A stretch of DNA of 64,000 bases from a virus (IMGVR_UViG_3300046786_000888:1-64000), one strand, 5' to 3'; counted from the stretch's first letter, positions 4,049-63,517 are shown. Notes: generated by a model from the letters alone, not told the origin. Program-made: numbers and translations.

Positions 4049-4110
4049 TTCAGCATCAACAGGTATAGAATACTCAAAGATTTAAGACGGAAATTCCCGT
4101 CTTCCTTAAC

Positions 4111-4896
4111 GTGTCTAATAGTACCAGACTCACGGTCAACGGTTTACGTCACTACCGTTGCGAAGGTGTAGATGTGCCTTTGCCTTCGGTGACATCTGTT
4201 TTATCCGCCACGCAGAGCGCCGAAACACAGCGTAAGCTAGCGCATTGGAATGCGTTAAATCCAGGGGTTGCTGACGCTGCAGCAGCTCGTGGGAGCTGGA
4301 TCCACGAGGCGGTAGAGAACCACATCAGGGGGATTACAGTAAACCCCAGAGAAGATCTTAAGCCTTATTGGAAGGACGTTCCAGAGAAAGTTGACGAATT
4401 GATTGGCAGCGGACGCGTCCTATGGAGTGAAAAACCCTACAACCAACCCGGTTGGTCCCGTTACGTCGGGGATGATGGAGTCGGACGCATACACTACTAC
4501 GACGCTCCAACAGGTCACGGCTGGGCGGGCTGCTGCGACATCATTTATAAAGACAGCAACGGCGAAATCATCCTGGGCGACTTCAAAACGTCCGTAGGGC
4601 CATACAGCGCGAAGTTCCCCTCAAGCAAAGCTGATATCCCAGAGAACTTAAAGAAAGCCCTAATCAGTGGAGTCTTTAAATTCAAGAAAACGAAACTCCA
4701 GCTTGCTGCCTATACAATCGCAGCCGAAAAATGCTTGGGTATTAAAATATCGAAAACCCAGATAATTGTATCTACTCCTATACCTGAATATAGCGTTCAG
4801 GTATTTAGTTTCGGAGAAAAAGATATAGAAAAAGACAAAGAAAACTGGTGGCAAATAGTGCGAAAATACTACGACACTCACGACGTAACAGGGTGA
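4111..4896 (+). CDS. PD-(D/E)XK exonuclease (Cas4/MGME1-like phage type)
   Basis: LPSVTSVLS, RGSWIHEAVE, AGCCDII, GDFKTS and QLAAY motifs. Confidence 0.85.
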   Translation: MSNSTRLTVNGLRHYRCEGVDVPLPSVTSVLSATQSAETQRKLAHWNALNPGVADAAAARGSWIHEAVENHIRGITVNPREDLKPYWKDVPEKVDELIGSGRVLWSEKPYNQPGWSRYVGDDGVGRIHYYDAPTGHGWAGCCDIIYKDSNGEIILGDFKTSVGPYSAKFPSSKADIPENLKKALISGVFKFKKTKLQLAAYTIAAEKCLGIKISKTQIIVSTPIPEYSVQVFSFGEKDIEKDKENWWQIVRKYYDTHDVTG

Positions 4897-8435: not shown

Positions 8436-8452
8436 GTAGTTGATCGGACTAA
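8436..8452 (-). repeat. Junction site S1 (gene orientation TTAGT-CCGATCA-ACTAC)
   Basis: 5-bp arms with 7-bp spacer; contains the TAG stop of 8449..9183. Confidence 0.6.
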
Positions 8453-9183
8453 TAGGGCAGTGGCAGGGCACGGACAGATAGCCAGTGTGTTGGCTGCTCA
8501 TTTAGAGCGCGTTCTGGTACAGCGTCATCTTCATGCGCCCAGTAGCCATAGGTGTCGCTAGGTACTTCTGGATACCACCACCAACACTTGCCTTCTATAT
8601 CGCAATCCCCCGGCCCCGGCAGGCGCTCGCTCACCGGCACCGGCTGCGGTGGGCTCAGGCGTTCCAGTAAGTCGGCGGCGCGAAGGCGCTCATCGGAAGT
8701 CAGGTGCCCACCTGCGCGCAATTCACTGACTTCTTCACGCAGCAATCGCGTAAGCTCCGCCACCTCGCCAGCGGCAGGGGAACGTGTAAGCCCGGCTTTC
8801 AAGTTGCCCGAACTATCTGGAGATCCCGGATGGTTGCCCCAGCGTGCGAGAACGGCGCGGGCGTACTCGGCAGCATCTCCGACTGACGTCATCCCCATAT
8901 CATCAGCCAACATAATGAGCTGTCGACTGGTTGGTTCCTTCGGCTCGGGCTCGGTTACCCATAACTCGCCACAGTCGCAGTGTTCAGGACCTTGCTGACA
9001 TGGGCCACCGCATTCTGCTATTTGCGACGGGCTGTAGATGCAGCGGTGTGGGGGCTCGGGCTCGGCCAGGGCGGCGCGGGCGCGGTCGATGTCAGCGCGG
9101 ATTGTCTCCTTTAGTTTGAAGGGCCAGTCGCACAACTCAAGGTCATCAACCAGCTCAGCGCACAGTTGTTTGTAGTCAGTCAT
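8449..9183 (-). CDS. Modular accessory phage protein
   Basis: Modules TDYKQLCAEL, RARAALAEPEP, LARWGNHPGSPDSS and PVPVSERLPGPGDCDIEGKCWW (DUF551-like end). Confidence 0.7.
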   Translation of the reverse strand: MTDYKQLCAELVDDLELCDWPFKLKETIRADIDRARAALAEPEPPHRCIYSPSQIAECGGPCQQGPEHCDCGELWVTEPEPKEPTSRQLIMLADDMGMTSVGDAAEYARAVLARWGNHPGSPDSSGNLKAGLTRSPAAGEVAELTRLLREEVSELRAGGHLTSDERLRAADLLERLSPPQPVPVSERLPGPGDCDIEGKCWWWYPEVPSDTYGYWAHEDDAVPERALNEQPTHWLSVRALPLPY

Positions 9184-9188
9184 GGTGG

Positions 9189-9205
9189 TTAGTGAGGTGG
9201 ACTAA
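9189..9205 (-). repeat. Junction site S2 (TTAGT-CCACCTC-ACTAA, perfect inverted arms)
   Basis: Contains the TAG stop of 9202..9546; next ATG 5 nt downstream. Confidence 0.75.
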
Positions 9206-9546
9206 GAGGTTGCGTAAGCAAACAAGTTGTTTACAACATCTTCAGATGTGTGGCCATTCCACTCCAGTGCTTTTTCTGCTACCTGCATTCCGGTTTTTGC
9301 AGCAGTGTCCCACAGGCTTGCGGGGAGGTGGTAACTGATTTGGCCTCCCGTCGGAAGTTCCCCGATAACGATAAACCATTCGTAGCTACCAAAACACAAT
9401 TTGCCGTCAGAATGGCATCGGCTCATCACGAAGCATTCAGGCATGGTGCTTACGAAAGCAAGAAACAGTGCGTGGCGGTGTTCGTACAGTTCAGCAAAGG
9501 TGTGGTAGCCGTCGCTGATTTGTGATCTGTCTTCCATTGGGGTCAT
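9202..9546 (-). CDS. Conserved phage protein (SDGYHTF...WxGH motif family)
   Basis: QISDGYHTFAELYEHRHALF, QISYHLP and WNGHT motifs. Confidence 0.7.
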   Translation of the reverse strand: MTPMEDRSQISDGYHTFAELYEHRHALFLAFVSTMPECFVMSRCHSDGKLCFGSYEWFIVIGELPTGGQISYHLPASLWDTAAKTGMQVAEKALEWNGHTSEDVVNNLFAYATS

Positions 9547-9562
9547 TAGTGATGTTGCCTAA
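9546..9562 (-). repeat. Junction site S3 (TTAGG-CAACATC-ACTAA)
   Basis: Contains the TAG stop of 9559..9906 and overlaps the ATG at 9546. Confidence 0.7.
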
Positions 9563-9906
9563 GAGGGCAGGGATTCAATAGCTCGACGAAGATCCGCGAT
9601 GATCTCAGGTAGGTAATGGCCATCGCGCTCCATGACCTCCAAGTGCTTCAGGTTCAGCTCCTTCAAGCTCGGCGGCTTGGGGCGGCGGGCGGCGCGAAGT
9701 TTGGTGCCATGCCCCCAGCCAGTACCAAGTTCACAATTCAGCCACTCACAGCACGCCTCCAGCTCCTGGTCAGCACCCCAATGGGCGGCTTGCATACATA
9801 GATGCTGCTCACGGTTCATGTGTTTTACTTTTGCTTTGTACCATTCATCCGACCATTGCAGAACAAGGCCTTCAGAAGGCGGAGTAATTGGGTGTTCTTG
9901 GGTCAT
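9559..9906 (-). CDS. HPITPP-family accessory protein (paralog 1)
   Basis: MTQEHPITPP...WGADQELEACCEWL...RAARRPKPPSLKE, shared with 60602..60946 and 61145..61537. Confidence 0.75.
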   Translation of the reverse strand: MTQEHPITPPSEGLVLQWSDEWYKAKVKHMNREQHLCMQAAHWGADQELEACCEWLNCELGTGWGHGTKLRAARRPKPPSLKELNLKHLEVMERDGHYLPEIIADLRRAIESLPS

Positions 9907-9955: not shown

Positions 9956-10663
9956 TCAGAGGATTTCTAAGTTCTCAATGACCCGCCAACCTTCAACAGC
10001 AGGATTGTCAGACGCAAGCACAGCTTTCACTGTAGTAGGCACGTAAGCGGACAAAATACGTCCAATATCGTGCGCAATATACTTGTGCTCCTTTTGGGTA
10101 CCATTAGCGCCGCGCAGACCAACGTAAAAAATCCAATCCCTTAAAGTGCCCTGCATGTGTAACCGCGTAGGTGTACACATCGGAAGAATATTTCGAGCGC
10201 ACTCGCGAGCCACGCCGGACTCTAACAACGTATGGTACAGATCTTCAATCTCAAGAAAGACTTCTTTAACACGCTTTTTTAAAACTTCTTTAACAGTCTC
10301 GTCGGCAAACTCAAGACTATTTTGCCGATCTTTGAAATCCTGAGCCCGAAGTTCAAAGTCCCAACAGCCGTCCCAGGCGTCATCAAGAATTTTATCAGGA
10401 TTGCAGTAACGTTGCGACAATTCTTGATAATGAAAAGCTCTATGACGAATAATTTGCGCCGAAATAGCGCGACTTGTTATAATCTCAAACGAAGCACAAA
10501 CCTGTTCGAAGATACTCCAATGCCCCTGATTAATACAAAAAGTCAGGAGCTTCTGGAACTCCGCTTTATCAGGATTTTTGGTGCTGGCTCGGGCGTGTCG
10601 GGCGACAACCTTCTCAGGGCTGTCGGTAATCCAATCGAGCTTAGCGTTGTGCAAACGATTCAC
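9956..10663 (-). CDS. thyX: Flavin-dependent thymidylate synthase
   Basis: HWSIFEQ; QIIRHRAFHYQELSQRY; ARNILP; RGANGTQKEH. Confidence 0.9.
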   Translation of the reverse strand: MNRLHNAKLDWITDSPEKVVARHARASTKNPDKAEFQKLLTFCINQGHWSIFEQVCASFEIITSRAISAQIIRHRAFHYQELSQRYCNPDKILDDAWDGCWDFELRAQDFKDRQNSLEFADETVKEVLKKRVKEVFLEIEDLYHTLLESGVARECARNILPMCTPTRLHMQGTLRDWIFYVGLRGANGTQKEHKYIAHDIGRILSAYVPTTVKAVLASDNPAVEGWRVIENLEIL

Positions 10664-58041: not shown

Positions 58042-58246
58042 CGAGGATGCCGCGCAAGTAATGAGCGGTAATATAGCAGTCTTCACTCAGCGCATCGGCT
58101 TGCGCGTCGCGATACAGCGCCTCAATCCACTCGGCTGTAGCCTCCATCACCACGCGGGCTTCCGACAAATATGCGTACCAATCATGCGACTCATGAGACT
58201 CAGCCAGTTGCATGGCCACGTATTTAAGCAAAGGATGCGTTTCCAT
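58013..58246 (-). CDS. Hypothetical protein
   Basis: 77-aa ORF downstream of the tRNA. Confidence 0.5.
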   Translation of the reverse strand: METHPLLKYVAMQLAESHESHDWYAYLSEARVVMEATAEWIEALYRDAQADALSEDCYITAHYLRGILDGSYPGTAG

Positions 58247-58264
58247 GTGATTTAGTTAATTAAA

Positions 58265-58346
58265 TACCCAGGACGAGACTCGAACTCGTACGGCATAACG
58301 CCTCAGCATTTTAAGTGCTGTGTGTCTACCATTCCACCACCTGGGC
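58265..58346 (-). tRNA. trnL: tRNA-Leu (anticodon UAA), CCA not encoded
   Basis: GCCCAGG/CCTGGGT acceptor stem; GGAATGGTAGAC D-arm; CAGCA-CTTAAAA-TGCTG anticodon arm; long variable arm; GTTCGAG T-loop. Confidence 0.93.
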
Positions 58347-58396
58347 GCTTTGCCAGATTAGCCCGAAATTTTCGGCCCGCAACAAACTTGTAACAA

Positions 58397-58612
58397 TCAA
58401 CCGACTGTCAGTTTCCCTTCCCTAATCGCCTTCTTTACAAAATACAACTCTTTCTCCCGCACCAAATGCCAAGAACTTACATAGCATTTGTCGCCCCACA
58501 CCGACTCGATTACGACTGAGTCTCCGTCGTTGTGTGGACTAGAACGTACGTTCTCCGCTATTGCCACGTCAAAATCAAATTCACAGTTGTCTGCGTTTGT
58601 TTGTTCTGTCAT
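58397..58612 (-). CDS. Hypothetical protein
   Basis: 71-aa ORF from ATG 58612. Confidence 0.5.
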   Translation of the reverse strand: MTEQTNADNCEFDFDVAIAENVRSSPHNDGDSVVIESVWGDKCYVSSWHLVREKELYFVKKAIREGKLTVG

Positions 58613-58638
58613 ACTGCTACTACCCAAGTTCTACCCCC

Positions 58639-59256
58639 GTGCCGCACAGTCTAGACCCAAAGTACAACATTCACAATGACTGGGTGCGCAATCTGGTCTC
58701 CGCGTGGGAACTCGCTAGCTCGGAGCCTAAAGCACCAGAACTTCACTTTAATCCACTCGACCAACGAATTATCGTCGAAATTGGAATTTATGAGGGAGCC
58801 TCAACAGTTTGGTTCTCCGACAACCTGCTTGAGCACCCCGACAGCAGACTGATCAGTATCGACCCGTTCACCGGCTCTGAGGAGATGATCCGGGATCCCC
58901 AGCAGCATCCCACGCTGTCCCAGATCGAATTCACAGCCCGATCCAACGTCGCCAAGTCCAAGCACCCCGGCAAGGTCCGCATTGAAAAGGGCTGCTCGTG
59001 GGACCTCTACCCGAACCTCAAGGCCGAGTTCACACAAGGCATCGACATCCTGTACATCGACGGTGCGCACGATAGCACCTCCGTCATGCGCGACATCGCC
59101 CTGTATGCGCCCCATGTCAAATCAGGCGGTGCCATCCTATTCGACGACTACGGCGCTGAGTCTGTGCGCGTTTCCGTAGATGCCGCCGTCAACTCCTTCC
59201 TCTCCCTTGAAAAGGGTGTACTGTGTCCGTGGCAGCTCTGGACCGTCAAAAAGTGA
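58639..59256 (+). CDS. Class I SAM-dependent methyltransferase (Methyltransf_24-like)
   Basis: VEIGIYEGAS; SIDPF; ILYIDGAH; VKSGGAILFDDY; GTG at 58639 preferred. Confidence 0.85.
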   Translation: MPHSLDPKYNIHNDWVRNLVSAWELASSEPKAPELHFNPLDQRIIVEIGIYEGASTVWFSDNLLEHPDSRLISIDPFTGSEEMIRDPQQHPTLSQIEFTARSNVAKSKHPGKVRIEKGCSWDLYPNLKAEFTQGIDILYIDGAHDSTSVMRDIALYAPHVKSGGAILFDDYGAESVRVSVDAAVNSFLSLEKGVLCPWQLWTVKK

Positions 59257-59295
59257 CCGCCCAGACACTGCTTATCACATTCGCCATCTACACCC

Positions 59296-59559
59296 TTGCA
59301 GTCGTCCTATTCTTCTGGATTGCCTCAAGAATCGTACCCTGATCAACCCAACGTGCTTAAATTCGACACCAATTCTTACCTAGAAAAACGCGAAAACCGC
59401 CTACATGACATCATGAACGAATACCTAGACGACGAGGAGTTTGAAGCGCTCGCAGTCGCAATCCTCAGCCATCTCCAAGACGAATACAGACATCACTCCG
59501 AAAGATGCGGCAAACTCAAGCGCGTCTTTGAACTTCTTCAAACCGGAAACATCCAATGA
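59296..59559 (+). CDS. Hypothetical protein
   Basis: 87-aa ORF coupled to the next gene. Confidence 0.5.
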   Translation: MQSSYSSGLPQESYPDQPNVLKFDTNSYLEKRENRLHDIMNEYLDDEEFEALAVAILSHLQDEYRHHSERCGKLKRVFELLQTGNIQ

Positions 59560-60116
59560 CCACGCCAACCACAGCGGTTGAAATCAAGATCAACTACAGC
59601 GGCAGCGGTCGGTACGACGGACTCCCTGAGCACACATTCACCATGCTCATGGAAGACGCTACGGAGATCTCATCTGACTCGTGGTTTCTCCTGTTCGAGC
59701 GTGTTTTAGGTGCCCTGGGTTATTGCGAAACCGCCATCATGTCGGGCGCCTGCAGTCTCGCCTTCAACGACCTGCGGGACCCTGAGGAAATGAAAAAGGT
59801 CGCCACCGAACACGACCTACGACTCGTCGAAGACCCGGACCCAACCCCAAACATCAAACTCGAACCGACCAAAAACCCAGAGAAAAAACCCCTGTACGAA
59901 ATCGTTAGGGATGATTCAGATCTTTACGGATCTGTATGGACTCAAAAGCTAGCTAAGATGTTTAGGGTCATCGCCGACCAGATCCAAATTAGCGGTGAGG
60001 ACCAGTTCGGCGTTTACCAAACCACGGGGGAAGACATCCGCGAATGGTTGTACTGCGAAGCTCAAAAAGCAGAAAACTTCTGGGGCTCCGACCATGAATC
60101 CGAACATCAACCATAG
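59556..60116 (+). CDS. Hypothetical two-module accessory protein
   Basis: C-terminal FRVIADQI...IREWLYCEA module resembles 62970..63155. Confidence 0.6.
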   Translation: MTTPTTAVEIKINYSGSGRYDGLPEHTFTMLMEDATEISSDSWFLLFERVLGALGYCETAIMSGACSLAFNDLRDPEEMKKVATEHDLRLVEDPDPTPNIKLEPTKNPEKKPLYEIVRDDSDLYGSVWTQKLAKMFRVIADQIQISGEDQFGVYQTTGEDIREWLYCEAQKAENFWGSDHESEHQP

Positions 60117-60321
60117 AGCGTTTATCAAAAAGCTCGAACAAGCGTATCAATGCTGCCATTTCTGCGGCACGCTATACGGCAAACCTCGCGAAGGAGCTAG
60201 TACGATGTGGCATGGGACGTGTGATGTGTGCGGTGAATCCGCCACGGTCACCGAAACCCGCGACTACGGATACTTAGATAAAGGTATTCAAAGTATTAAA
60301 ACCAAACACAAACTCAAATGA
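60094..60321 (+). CDS. Zn-ribbon protein
   Basis: CHFCG...CDVCG..VTETRDYG. Confidence 0.65.
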   Translation: MNPNINHRAFIKKLEQAYQCCHFCGTLYGKPREGASTMWHGTCDVCGESATVTETRDYGYLDKGIQSIKTKHKLK

Positions 60322-60572
60322 CAGTCTGGAACTCAGTTGTTCCTTCGTTACGAACAAACCAGCGAAACATTCTGCGTTTAGTTGCACAGCACGAACAACG
60401 CAACCCTCACGAACCCTGTTACCTAGGAAAAGTTACAGCTTCCCGCAGAAACGTTTTCCTAAAAGCTGTTGCTTCTTTAGAAGATAAACAACTGATCGAT
60501 ATAGAGCGAACAGGTTCAAACTTTCAAGCGTGGAAAGTCAAATTGCTTATACCCATAGATACAGTTATTTAA
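60318..60572 (+). CDS. Winged-helix-like hypothetical protein
   Basis: LRTNQRNILR...KAVASLEDKQLIDIER. Confidence 0.5.
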   Translation: MTVWNSVVPSLRTNQRNILRLVAQHEQRNPHEPCYLGKVTASRRNVFLKAVASLEDKQLIDIERTGSNFQAWKVKLLIPIDTVI

Positions 60573-60578
60573 ACGTCA

Positions 60579-60595
60579 GTAGTCATTACCACTAA
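60579..60595 (+). repeat. Junction site S4 (GTAGT-CATTACC-ACTAA)
   Basis: Intergenic, 6 nt before the ATG at 60602. Confidence 0.7.
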
Positions 60596-60601
60596 TCACC
60601 C

Positions 60602-60946
60602 ATGACACAACAACATCCCATCACCCCACCACCTGAGCTATTTGCCGAGTGGTGGGAACAGGCAGACCAGTATCAAGACGATCCAAAGACATACTTCGAC
60701 TACGTTGCCACCGAAGCCGCCCAATGGGGTGCTGATCGGGAGTTGGAGGCGTGCTGTGAGTGGCTGCACTGGCAAAATCTAGCGACACACCCGGAGCTAA
60801 TCCCATCACTCCGCGCCGCTCGCCGCCCCAAGCCGCCGAGCTTGAAGGAGCAGGCGCTAGAACTGCTGGACAAAGCAGAAGACCCTAGATGGGATATCAA
60901 TGATTTCACTGTTGTCCGCCGCGCACTGGAGCAACTTGATGACTGA
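60602..60946 (+). CDS. HPITPP-family accessory protein (paralog 2)
   Basis: MTQQHPITPP...WGADRELEACCEWL...RAARRPKPPSLKEQAL. Confidence 0.75.
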   Translation: MTQQHPITPPPELFAEWWEQADQYQDDPKTYFDYVATEAAQWGADRELEACCEWLHWQNLATHPELIPSLRAARRPKPPSLKEQALELLDKAEDPRWDINDFTVVRRALEQLDD

Positions 60947-61148
60947 AAATCAAATCCATTTCATACGTGGTTGCTGTACAACAATCCTTATGTTTGCAGG
61001 GATTGGTTTATTGGCTGCAATCTTTTTGTCACCTGATGAACCTGTAGACAAATCAAAGTTTGAAGTCCTTGATCAGTACGAAGGTTGTTCAGTAATCCGT
61101 TACACTGATTCCACATCTCGCTGGCATTACTTCCTTAAGTGCTCATGA
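60939..61148 (+). CDS. Small membrane-anchored protein
   Basis: TM segment, then KFEVLDQYEGCSVIRYT...YFLKC. Confidence 0.6.
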   Translation: MTENQIHFIRGCCTTILMFAGIGLLAAIFLSPDEPVDKSKFEVLDQYEGCSVIRYTDSTSRWHYFLKCS

Positions 61149-61537
61149 CACAAGAACACCCCGTCACACCACCACCGGAGCTGGTAAAGCAATGGCGAGA
61201 AGCGCCCGAGTTTTCTGCGCTGTCTCCGTGTGTGATGGTGACAGTTACCACCACTAAGCTGCAAGACATCGCTACTCAAGCCGCCCGATGGGGCGCAGAC
61301 GCTGAGCTGGATGCGTGCTGTGAGTGGATCCCCAAGTGGACACCTTGGGACGCTGATCAACTCCGCGCCGACCGCCGCCCCAAGCCGCCGAGCTTGAAGG
61401 AGCAAGCGCTTGAGCAGTTGGATGGAATTGCAGCCGTATTCCAAATGTCTCACGGCGGCAACCTTGTATGTGACACCATCCGCCGCGCACTGGAGGCACT
61501 GCCCGACAGCATTGTCGTATTTCCTTCTCAGTGTTAA
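61145..61537 (+). CDS. HPITPP-family accessory protein (paralog 3)
   Basis: MTQEHPVTPP...WGADAELDACCEW...RADRRPKPPSLKEQAL. Confidence 0.75.
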   Translation: MTQEHPVTPPPELVKQWREAPEFSALSPCVMVTVTTTKLQDIATQAARWGADAELDACCEWIPKWTPWDADQLRADRRPKPPSLKEQALEQLDGIAAVFQMSHGGNLVCDTIRRALEALPDSIVVFPSQC

Positions 61538-61714
61538 AAGCATTAAAAAGCGGCAGGATGTCACCCCCACCGCTCTTGCAACTGGATCTCACTCCAGTCG
61601 CTTTGCTGCTTTCTGATCAGCCCCAGCACTGTAGCACACGGCAGGTATCAGCATGTATTACCTGAAAACAGGAATCAGCTAATACTTGCCCGCTTACGAC
61701 CCGTCTCAATTTCC

Positions 61715-61903
61715 ATGTCTGAACTTTCCTCCGCCGCGCAGGCGGTGATTACTGCCAGCAACTGTGCTGGGTCTCGAATCGTGCAGTTGCACATTGCCGC
61801 CGCCCTGCGAGCCGCTGCGGATGAGGTATGCCTCCGTTGGGCTGAGCTGAAACATCCTGCAGATGTTTTGAACACCATCGCTGACGAGCTTGAAGCCTCG
61901 TAG
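61715..61903 (+). CDS. Small accessory phage protein
   Basis: LSSAAQAV...IAAALRAAADEV...IADELE; its stop lies in site S5. Confidence 0.65.
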   Translation: MSELSSAAQAVITASNCAGSRIVQLHIAAALRAAADEVCLRWAELKHPADVLNTIADELEAS

Positions 61904-61916
61904 TCACCTTCACTCG
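61900..61916 (+). repeat. Junction site S5 (GTAGT-CACCTTC-ACTCG)
   Basis: Contains the TAG stop at 61901; next ATG at 61918. Confidence 0.6.
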
Positions 61917-61917
61917 T

Positions 61918-62058
61918 ATGCTTGACGACATAACTCCTGAGGAAAACGAGCGACGCTTTAGAGAGTGTATGGAACGGATCCACAACTTAACCCGCGAAGA
62001 ACTGGTAGAGGTGATGGGCGAAGAATGGCTTGAAGACTATCGCCGCAAGTTCTCTTAG
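61918..62058 (+). CDS. 46-aa mini-gene between S5 and S6
   Basis: MLDDITPEENERRFRECMERIHNLTREELVEVMGEEWLEDYRRKFS. Confidence 0.6.
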   Translation: MLDDITPEENERRFRECMERIHNLTREELVEVMGEEWLEDYRRKFS

Positions 62059-62071
62059 TCAAACTCACTAA
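62055..62071 (+). repeat. Junction site S6 (TTAGT-CAAACTC-ACTAA, perfect inverted arms)
   Basis: Contains the TAG stop at 62056; next ATG at 62077. Confidence 0.75.
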
Positions 62072-62076
62072 ACACT

Positions 62077-62232
62077 ATGACTGACGAACAAATCGACACA
62101 CTCCGAACACTCATTCAAGGCGAAATCGAAGCCGCTCTTCAAAATGAAAACGGCTACCGATTTGCATTCGAACAAGAGCAGACAAACGATCAAGGTTGGG
62201 AAACCTTCAAGAAGTTATTTAAGTCCCACTAA
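62077..62232 (+). CDS. 51-aa mini-gene between S6 and S7
   Basis: MTDEQIDTLRTLIQGEIEAALQNENG...WETFKKLFKSH. Confidence 0.6.
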   Translation: MTDEQIDTLRTLIQGEIEAALQNENGYRFAFEQEQTNDQGWETFKKLFKSH

Positions 62233-62245
62233 CCGCACTCACTAA
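62229..62245 (+). repeat. Junction site S7 (CTAAC-CGCACTC-ACTAA)
   Basis: Contains the TAA stop at 62230 and overlaps the ATG at 62245; same stop-to-ATG spacing as S3. Confidence 0.6.
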
Positions 62246-62472
62246 TGAAACTCCTCAGCGAAAATCTGGATTTTAATAGCTACCCAGATGCTCTCTGGGA
62301 ATTAGGATCACAGTTCATCATCTCCCGTGGCTACGAACAAGAAATAGACGTCGACTCCCTGATGGTACTTCTGTGGAAAATGCAGCAACGCATCGAAAAG
62401 CTGGAATCCCTGACCACGCCTGGATTCTGCGGCGAAACTTGCGACAAAACCTCTACACTCACAAACGAATGA
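62245..62472 (+). CDS. Hypothetical protein
   Basis: 75-aa ORF starting in S7. Confidence 0.55.
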   Translation: MKLLSENLDFNSYPDALWELGSQFIISRGYEQEIDVDSLMVLLWKMQQRIEKLESLTTPGFCGETCDKTSTLTNE

Positions 62473-62479
62473 GGTTGTT

Positions 62480-62734
62480 ATGACCGACCTTGAACTGATC
62501 GAAGCTGCAAACAGAGCCGGTCTGTGCGTGGCACAGTGCTGGGACTTAGACGAACTCTATAATCTCGATGCAGTAGAAAACACAGAGGACTGGATTCGCG
62601 ATTCGCAAACAGCGGACGAACGCGACGAAAAGGAACGCGTGGCAAACCACATCCGCCTACGCGCTCAAGAGAAAATGAACAATCTGCGTGAGTTTGCCGA
62701 ACTGATCCTGGCTGCGGAGCGAATTCGAAAATGA
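62480..62734 (+). CDS. Hypothetical protein
   Basis: GAGG RBS, 84 aa. Confidence 0.55.
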   Translation: MTDLELIEAANRAGLCVAQCWDLDELYNLDAVENTEDWIRDSQTADERDEKERVANHIRLRAQEKMNNLREFAELILAAERIRK

Positions 62735-62973
62735 CCACGCTGCGCCAACTACTGCAAGAACTCGTGGAGGAGATTGATAAAACGCCCCCTCCTTTAGCTC
62801 TCGGGTGTTTAGCCGATCGTTGCCGCGATTACCTGGACGATCACCCAGAACGTCAACCAACAGTAGAAGAACTGCACGCCCTGTGGGACGAAATATGGTC
62901 CGACCCAAACAGGATGCGTTACATGCACATAATATACGCTCAACAAATTTTAGAAAAATGGGGTAATAGATGA
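62731..62973 (+). CDS. Small modular accessory protein
   Basis: LRQLLQELVEE...PTVEEL...YAQQILEKWG echoes modules in 8449..9183. Confidence 0.6.
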   Translation: MTTLRQLLQELVEEIDKTPPPLALGCLADRCRDYLDDHPERQPTVEELHALWDEIWSDPNRMRYMHIIYAQQILEKWGNR

Positions 62974-63155
62974 GCCTAATACACAAATTACAAATTAATC
63001 CTGAACTGTATCCTTTATGTCTTACAAACGCCCAACTAAAGACTATCTTGGAGTTAATTGCCAACGAAGTCGAAGAACGTGGCGATAAACACCTAGACCT
63101 AGATCCAGGTGAAACATCAGATTGGTTACGCCAAGAAGCCGCATCTATCGACTAG
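62970..63155 (+). CDS. Small accessory protein
   Basis: ILELIANEVEERG...TSDWLRQEA. Confidence 0.55.
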   Translation: MSLIHKLQINPELYPLCLTNAQLKTILELIANEVEERGDKHLDLDPGETSDWLRQEAASID

Positions 63156-63188
63156 CGCAATCCAACAGCGTTTTTCTGAGGTGCCGTC

Positions 63189-63344
63189 ATCGACGACCAA
63201 ACTCGCCAGAACTGGCTCAAAGTAAAAACGGCTCTAGAAGCCGCCGGTAAAACTGAGTCACACTTTTACAAACGTGCAGTTGCTGTCTCAAAAGGACAAG
63301 AAGACCCTGGTTTTGAAAAATACACTGCTCAATTGTTCCAATGA
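63189..63344 (+). CDS. Cyanophage-type small protein with apparent ATC start
   Basis: (I)DDQTRQNWLKVKTALEAAGKTESHFYKRAVAV; GAGG 7 nt upstream; in-frame TGA at 63177. Confidence 0.5.
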   Translation: MDDQTRQNWLKVKTALEAAGKTESHFYKRAVAVSKGQEDPGFEKYTAQLFQ

Positions 63345-63517
63345 CGTACTACACCGGCGCAAATAAATAGATTTGTCAGAAAGTAACTCAAAAAAATGCC
63401 CGTGCGAACCCACGCAACGGCATCGGATTCTTTATCGCACTCCGAAGCCCTCTCCCCAAGGGCTTTAAACCACAAACGCCTCCAGCGAGGACGAGTTTTA
63501 GTCCGCATTTGCCGCAT
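63329..63517 (-). CDS. Cyanophage-type small membrane protein
   Basis: WRRLWFKALGERA...AWVRT...TNLFICAGVVRHWN. Confidence 0.7.
   Translation of the reverse strand: MRQMRTKTRPRWRRLWFKALGERASECDKESDAVAWVRTGIFLSYFLTNLFICAGVVRHWNN

Follow-up and report, generated by a model that had tools for sequence, protein, structure and literature searches.

HsdS of type I restriction-modification systems carries variable recognition domains between conserved regions, and recombination in these regions gives new specificities; its variable parts are large, namely two target-recognition domains of ~150 aa each. A finer arrangement is found in the T2/T6-type gp38 adhesins. In these, hypervariable segments HVS1-4 are placed between glycine-rich motifs GRM1-5, and exchanges in or near the conserved motifs are described to yield chimeras, with a large segment library being shared (PMC3157838, citing Tetart et al. 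1996, 1998). In Neisseria pilE/pilS variation, mini-cassettes lie between the conserved elements cys1 and cys2 and are moved as short tracts with flanking microhomology; one expressed gene is accompanied by silent, promoterless partial copies, and the process is programmed, involving a G4 structure, RecA and CCGG cleavage (PMC13321361). In T4-type phages, PeSLs are intergenic cassettes of a promoter and a stem-loop, short repeats in hyperplastic regions at which homologous exchange reshuffles small uncharacterised genes, so that whole genes are moved (PMC2839356, PMC4122927).

Here we describe a family of small phage proteins that is encoded three times in one 64,000-nt stretch of viral DNA, hereafter the window. 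Its design resembles that of the gp38 adhesins and, more loosely, pilin mini-cassettes, PeSL shuffling and HsdS, and it belongs to none of them. As in gp38, short hypervariable segments alternate with conserved motifs and exchange takes place in the motifs, which is a resemblance of working and not of membership. Unlike gp38, the family shows no sequence or fold relation to adhesins (no adhesin match in Pfam, PHROG or PDB), its conserved blocks are helical and without Gly runs, and its products are small acidic proteins encoded in several copies per genome among replication and early genes, not virion adhesins. It also differs from gp38 in spanning podo- and sipho-type cyanophages and in having cassettes close to linkage equilibrium.

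The family is like pilin variation in that its cassettes are bounded by conserved elements, recombination tracts are short with microhomology on their flanks, and multiple copies provide a sequence reservoir, but nearly all of its copies are complete ORFs and exchange is seen at the population level only. A pilin-type system of one expressed gene with silent donors was rejected, because the three window copies are complete and 199 of 236 family hits across loci are full-length, internal partial copies being few. PeSL shuffling likewise uses short conserved sequences as sites of homologous exchange, whereas the blocks described here are coding and lie inside the gene, and the units moved are 3-31 codons. 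Variable segments between conserved regions, with recombination in the latter, are also the plan of HsdS, from which the family differs in sequence (no Pfam match at E <= 1), in having three segments of 3-31 aa, and in biological role; membership of HsdS was rejected, no Methylase_S domain being found with Pfam at E <= 1. What sets it apart is the family itself, its non-structural early/replication setting, its several intact copies, the small size of its units and the near-complete linkage equilibrium in a very large population. Literature searches by motif and topic found no paper on this family (phrog_32006).

Results

Family copies in the window

The window covers the first 64 kb of an IMG/VR virus record of 78,105 bp, whose completeness is rated at 97%. 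Runs containing the stretch are mostly freshwater and lake metagenomes, and the closest cultured relatives of its family genes are in the Synechococcus phages S-CBS2, S-H1 and S-RIP1. The gene plan consists of the constant blocks A (codons 1-17), B (36-55), C (70-86) and D (~103-114), with the cassettes V1, V2 and V3 between them; the boundaries were taken from the family HMM alignment. Blocks measure 45-60 nt and cassettes 3-31 codons, with medians of 12-20. The family features of this genome are as follows.

9559..9906, minus strand: family gene copy 1, 115-aa ORF, phrog_32006 at E 1.8e-25; 51 kb from the other two copies and inverted
Segments of copy 1, minus strand: A 9853-9906, V1 9799-9852, B 9739-9798, V2 9700-9738, C 9649-9699, V3 9592-9648, D with stop 9559-9591
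60602..60946, plus strand: family gene copy 2, 114-aa ORF, phrog_32006 at E 5.5e-31
Segments of copy 2, plus strand: A 60602-60652, V1 60653-60706, B 60707-60766, V2 60767-60808, C 60809-60859, V3 60860-60913, D with stop 60914-60946
61145..61537, plus strand: family gene copy 3, 130-aa ORF, phrog_32006 at E 1.9e-31
Segments of copy 3, plus strand: A 61145-61195, V1 61196-61270, B 61271-61330, V2 61331-61360, C 61361-61411, V3 61412-61477, D with tail and stop 61478-61537
77840-78105 of the record, beyond the window: fourth copy, truncated by the record end 25 nt past block C
60821-60851 (plus), 61373-61403 (plus) and 9657-9687 (minus): 31-mer, the core of block C, exact in all three
60745-60766 (plus) and 9739-9760 (minus): 22-mer, the second half of block B, exact; 61309-61330, the same with 3 mismatches

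A first-pass annotation of this DNA had reported three paralogs built of constant and variable parts. All of its positions were confirmed and all three copies are present in the window, while the total for the genome rises to four with the copy outside it, which has 2 mismatches to the 31-mer. Pairwise protein identity among the three window copies is 45-51% and falls mostly within the four blocks; between the blocks the ORFs are unalignable, in agreement with the earlier description of these segments as unrelated. The 31-nt block said to be identical in all three copies is indeed exact, with 0 chance matches in 100 shuffles, and so is the 22-nt block said to be identical in two. The blocks were also correctly described as GC-richer: measured against the cassettes of the same copies, GC is 0.63-0.75 in blocks B and C and 0.41-0.57 in the cassettes.

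The 31-mer is the most conserved nucleotide stretch of the family, and its exact form is the family-wide consensus, carried by 25 of 98 unique family genes and occurring in at least 119 IMG/VR stretches. That three copies agree in it is therefore, on its own, no evidence of exchange among them, and its exact occurrence in three copies of one genome is only mildly unusual.

Size and spread of the family

All window copies match phrog_32006, which PHROGs annotates as of unknown function, over profile positions 2-115 of 116. At least 7,998 proteins (90%-identity clusters) match the family at E <= 0.001 in a word-indexed search (7,998 of 8,000 scored candidates), and an exhaustive profile search gave 2,548 clusters (50% identity), of which 1,702 reach E <= 1e-10. 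Genes of the family are present in the cultured phages S-H1, S-CBS2 and S-RIP1 and occur across podo- and sipho-type cyanophages, and the family is among the commoner small proteins of freshwater cyanophages. Within the genome collection it was found on 7 MAG contigs only, with scattered taxonomic labels, and in no isolate genome. These 7 contigs are probably mis-binned phage DNA, and given so few and so scattered occurrences we read the family as phage-restricted. Family proteins had no match in Pfam at E <= 1; a search of the family protein against NCBIfam gave no match either, and the PADLOC defence profiles returned 0 families at E <= 1.

Multiple copies are frequent. Two or more lie within ~6 kb at 33 of 81 loci, up to 7 family hits were counted at one locus, and neighbouring copies share their strand in 86 of 87 pairs.

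Cassette mosaic across the family

Cassettes are discrete types, conserved internally, and their combinations differ from gene to gene. Among 210 proteins, V1 is at least 75% identical in 1,712 pairs; in these pairs V2 is at most 35% identical in 1,481 and at least 75% identical in only 146. The remaining cassette pairings behave in the same way. To count types we used 171 unique genes from loci picked via block peptides or the block 31-mer, so that the choice of cassettes is unbiased. They contain 104 types of V1, 105 of V2 and 84 of V3, in 167 distinct triples, and pairs with two cassettes in common numbered 2, 7 and 5, against 1.35, 1.77 and 1.67 expected if the cassettes were independent. 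Chao1 lower bounds were 235, 285 and 127 types for V1, V2 and V3, respectively, with rarefaction far from saturated. Each cassette position has at least about 100 discrete sequence types, and the types combine almost at random, near linkage equilibrium. A single tree for all segments is ruled out, since types co-occur almost independently and single cassettes are common to different genes at 94-100% nt identity.

The same picture was obtained from 119 independent library representatives, in which 43 pairs had one cassette in common (>=75%) and none had two, and the mosaic was kept among proteins found on at least 3 contigs or in at least 2 samples. Cultured phages and metagenome genes also have single cassettes in common, at 72-90% protein identity; examples are V3 of S-RIP1, V3 of S-H1 and V2 of S-CBS2, the last of which also matches V2 of the window copy at 61145..61537.

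Inside cassette types, pN/pS is ~0.2, which argues that the cassettes are maintained and not decaying. In most same-type cassette pairs nt identity is under 90%, which makes the typical exchange old; some tracts, at 97-100% identity, mark recent events.

Breakpoints and shared tracts

We defined shared tracts as stretches of at least 93% nt identity in gene pairs whose overall identity is no more than 85%. Their ends cluster at codons 17-18, 35-40, 51-55, 69-71 and 84-87 and almost never fall within cassettes, which places at the block edges the recombination breakpoints that had been expected in the blocks. Sixty-one tracts cover one cassette (21 V1, 15 V2 and 25 V3), and only 2 cover two. 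Single cassettes recur at 94-100% nt identity in genes whose other cassettes are unrelated.

Two window copies provide examples. In the copy at 9559..9906, V2 is 99% identical over 118 nt to a gene of contig L008, otherwise a different phage, and V3 is 99% identical over 135 nt to a gene of contig L010, the rest of the genes being different. The second copy contains the following tract.

60717..60832, plus strand: 116-nt tract, 100% identical to the third family gene of contig L074; positions good to a few bases

It takes in block B from its start, V2, and block C up to its middle. V1 on its left and V3 on its right are unrelated, and it thus exemplifies a short recombination patch that begins and ends within blocks. 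Contig L074 (71 kb) is a close relative, its flanks being 90% and 96% identical. Compared with window positions 58137-63419, the 2.7-kb family array is replaced there by a 3.8-kb array with three different family genes, which makes the region a hypervariable island.

Within single contigs, by comparison, the family genes show no sign of converging. Blocks of same-contig family pairs are no more alike than those of different-contig pairs, and same-contig paralogs have a cassette in common in 1 of 37 pairs, so no special intragenomic conversion is seen. Intragenomic concerted evolution was thus rejected, and with same-contig block similarity no higher than between contigs, the earlier idea of gene conversion gains no support for the three copies of this genome.

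Synonymous sites of the blocks

We applied a codon fixation test to 93 genes whose proteins have less than 85% identity to one another. In the block cores, codon choice is set site by site, beyond general codon bias. Two neighbouring Cys codons are TGC in 81% and then TGT in 88%; two Ala sites use GCC (90-92%) and another uses GCG (85%); at Leu81 the codon is TTG in 79%, and Ser80 is AGC in 85%, with an expected homozygosity of 0.21. At the equally conserved Ala44, Leu86, Leu89, Ala108 and Glu110 outside the cores, codon homozygosity is as expected. Pairs without a common cassette use the same codon for the same residue at frequencies of 0.59, 0.65, 0.73 and 0.61 in blocks A-D, against a saturated baseline of 0.38-0.40 and 0.68-0.71 inside one cassette type. 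The site-specific codons and the values of 0.59-0.73 against 0.38-0.40 uphold the proposal that codon bias alone does not explain how conserved the synonymous block sites are. Family-wide, GC3 is 0.65-0.84 in the blocks vs 0.50-0.55 in the cassettes.

Pairs with a common V1 or V3 are more similar in the adjoining terminal block, A or D, respectively. Blocks B and C, which lie inside the gene, show essentially no coupling to the segments beside them, as exchange within B and C predicts. Since the synonymous similarity of the blocks equals that inside one cassette type, no extra nucleotide constraint is needed, and block conservation at this single-type level may be a by-product of exchange. The blocks thus behave like one freely recombining type.

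Predicted structure of the protein

Family proteins are ~115 aa long and acidic, with a median pI of 4.8, a net charge of -7 and one basic patch in block C. The AF2 model of copy 2 (pLDDT 85) has five helices, and copy 3 shows the same helix order; the two models reach pLDDT 85 and 77 and pTM 0.58 and 0.46, respectively. In these models the blocks would form the helix cores and a Pro-Lys-Pro-Pro linker of a fixed scaffold, and each cassette would comprise a helix end, a loop and the start of the next helix, predicted as exposed hairpin tips. The question had been raised whether the variable segments are surface elements. Their location at helix ends and loops in both models would agree with this, but with pTM of only 0.46-0.58 the tertiary arrangement is uncertain, including a clustering of the cassettes on one face. 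Foldseek against PDB and a PDB sequence search gave no match informative on function; the best hits of a wide VIA-align search were generic helical hairpins (Z 5.8), and ESM Atlas returned nothing but uncharacterised viral clusters or family members.

Gene neighbourhood and related modules

Family genes sit among replication and early genes, in ThyX, primase and ssb neighbourhoods. In the window, a ThyX gene (PF02511, E 1.5e-38; 9956-10663, minus strand) adjoins the copy at 9559..9906, and in S-H1 three small ORFs separate thyX from the family gene, which is located ~630 bp downstream of it. Directly downstream of the same window copy is a gene for a WDGH-domain protein (PF25311, E 1.7e-27; 9202-9546, minus strand). 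The database protein P0151 (422 aa) has a WDGH domain and the family unit in one frame, which may reflect a functional link or mere shared neighbourhood. At 8449-9183 (minus strand) lies a 244-aa ORF of another small-protein family, whose relatives on contigs L147 and L102 have block C, a V3 cassette and block D as their C-terminal part; from these fusions, modules seem to cross family borders.

The family unit is also found fused in tandem or placed after other modules (pentapeptide repeats, YD-like repeats and a WDGH domain), and halves of it are fused to unrelated halves in other small phage proteins. The blocks seem to link a wider module network. On contigs L033, L038, L057, L058 and L140, proteins of 64-69 aa consist of block A, V1, the first half of block B and an unrelated conserved tail, and the junction falls at codons 44-45, halfway through block B, where synonymous conservation dips. 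Contig L010 has a 56-aa ORF (4054-4228) made of block C, V3 and block D alone, L027 and L112 carry 45-aa N-terminal stubs ending in block B, and L170 has a copy frameshifted in block C. Such partial or damaged copies could be by-products of exchange or possible donors.

Around the tandem copies of the window, three further observations were made. An 82-aa ORF with one strongly hydrophobic stretch (60900-61148, plus strand) lies between them and overlaps the end of the first, and look-alikes of it follow family genes on L009 and L049; a constant membrane-protein partner was nevertheless rejected, because only 13 of 163 family genes are followed by a small TM-like ORF. A tRNA-Leu gene (anticodon UAA; 58265-58346, minus strand) is located 2.3 kb upstream, and the most conserved Leu codon of block C, TTG, is readable by it, in which coincidence is quite possible. 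Finally, an inverted repeat of the TAGT-N7-ACTA type at 60579-60601 stands just upstream of the start at 60602 and is also found at other gene junctions.

Discussion

Cassette shuffling by short-patch homologous recombination in the blocks of a fixed scaffold protein is the best explanation of these patterns, and we consider it quite probably correct. That homologous exchange inside the blocks is the mechanism is well supported, and we infer it from population sequence patterns, mostly of metagenome assemblies. Single cassettes would be moved by gene conversion or double crossover over a short patch, and the partners would be family members, either paralogs of one genome or homologs in co-infecting phages. 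Exchange would begin and be resolved within the 45-60-nt blocks, and these would be kept alike at synonymous sites by the exchange itself, by protein constraint and probably by GC-biased repair. Because exchange keeps the blocks alike, they would work as recombination handles with or without selection for this role. The first-pass annotation had cast the conserved anchors as recombination handles for segment swapping that builds a protein repertoire. The swapping in the blocks is supported at the population level, both by the tract ends and by the random combination of types, while selection of the blocks as handles goes further than these data reach.

Such selection is the core of a second reading, which we regard as rather unlikely: the blocks would be selected handles of an immune-like, population-level cyanophage repertoire that keeps up with variable host defences or rival phages, nucleases cutting the GC-rich blocks might be one means of actively promoting exchange, and the handles would link other small-protein families as well. 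If this were true, cyanophages would carry several scaffold copies bearing three surface cassettes drawn from a shared pool of hundreds of alleles.

The synonymous conservation, being real and site-specific, could alternatively mean that the blocks themselves carry a signal at the nucleic-acid level (RNA structure, nuclease or regulatory site, or overlapping gene) for which they are conserved, and that recombination is incidental. Between marine podoviruses and freshwater siphovirus-like phages only 2-3 of the 31 nt of block C differ, a point against the shuffling account in that it requires either gene flow between very different phages or some direct nucleotide constraint. The three cultured phages have it with 2-3 mismatches, and it is nearly identical in unrelated cultured marine and estuarine phages. 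In addition, a GAGCT(G/T)G core recurs in similar form in three blocks, and in block A there is a CCGG, the site at which a cut starts pilin variation in Neisseria (PMC13321361). We nevertheless judge the idea improbable. No alternative frame is open across any block family-wide, by which an overlapping gene is rejected; Rfam has no match for the blocks, its sole match in the window being a tRNA elsewhere; and block folding and block-block pairing do not exceed those of shuffles (z -1.6 to +1.9). Moreover, the exact 31-mer lies in frame within family ORFs in 80 of 80 IMG/VR copies examined and in none outside them, the four blocks differ from one another in sequence, and their synonymous conservation is not above that of a single cassette type.

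Exchange might also be programmed and frequent within infections, with nuclease breaks in the blocks being repaired from other copies as in pilE/pilS. The genes of the window that bear on such machinery are these.

485-1045: HNH-like/HTH protein; HTH_7 domain only, without a recombinase catalytic domain
1008-1652: weak SSB-like protein, below the Pfam cut-off
1673-2458: ORF adjoining the SSB-like gene; no match
4111-4896: exonuclease, phrog_298

The HNH-like/HTH protein and the exonuclease fit a programmed diversity generator, as do the multi-copy tandem arrays with their common strand (86 of 87 adjacent pairs), the partial copies that could act as donors (the 56-aa C-V3-D ORF and the N-terminal stubs) and the recent tracts of 97-100% identity. 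Most copies are, however, intact full-length ORFs with their own starts and do not form a set of one expressed gene and silent copies; same-contig paralogs almost never have cassettes in common and are not homogenised; and the low identity of most same-type cassette pairs (<90% nt) makes the typical exchange old. Neither a reverse transcriptase nor inverted repeats or recombinase sites flanking the cassettes were found, and on balance we judge this account improbable. Two specific generators were rejected outright: a diversity-generating retroelement, because a search of the 78-kb record for RVT_1 (reverse transcriptase) gave no match and the cassettes vary in length and are unalignable, and a shufflon or invertase, because the blocks differ in sequence, adjacent copies share their strand and the protein at 485-1045 has no recombinase catalytic domain. 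The SSB and exonuclease genes had been put forward as suppliers of recombination functions; they are at most candidates for such a role, the SSB-like match being weak, and searches of the 78-kb record for RecT, Erf and AAA_24 (Sak4-type) gave no match, that is, no annealing recombinase was recognised.

Assembly chimeras, produced by metagenome assemblers jumping between paralogs at shared k-mers, are unlikely, indeed hardly credible as the source of the mosaic: although many contigs, including the 78,105-bp record, end in or next to family genes, and Logan k=31 contigs break exactly at the blocks, whose k-mers reach 25-1000x the flank depth, ten full genes (clusters) recur in 2-3 independent samples with the mosaic kept, identical proteins occur on up to 21 contigs, individually sequenced cultured phages carry the blocks and have single cassettes in common with metagenome genes, the blocks (45-60 nt) are shorter than reads, and assemblers mostly break at such repeats instead of joining them, as the contig ends show. 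The largest k of JGI assembly workflows exceeds 45-60 nt. When Logan k=31 contigs are aligned to the stretch, block k-mers join many different sequences and the contigs stop at the blocks, so that they are uninformative for linkage. As the record and many related contigs end at family genes, the shared blocks evidently break assemblies. In practical terms, common blocks will interrupt metagenome assemblies of such phages, as happened at the end of this record.

Phage mosaicism is usually described for genes or domains. Under short-patch exchange in the blocks, the units here measure 3-31 codons within a tiny protein that is not structural, and the cassette combinations present across the phage population make up a huge repertoire of it. 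The family is a natural test of the shortest homology that sustains phage recombination and of how GC-biased repair shapes such tracts. Cassettes near linkage equilibrium over thousands of variants point to strong, long-lasting diversifying selection. We speculate that the protein is a specificity-determining early or middle product, for instance one that binds or inhibits a variable target in hosts or rival phages, and that its many alleles might be held by frequency-dependent selection in an arms race. If the cassettes do set binding specificity, the family could mark an unrecognised line of conflict of picocyanobacterial phages with their hosts or with one another.
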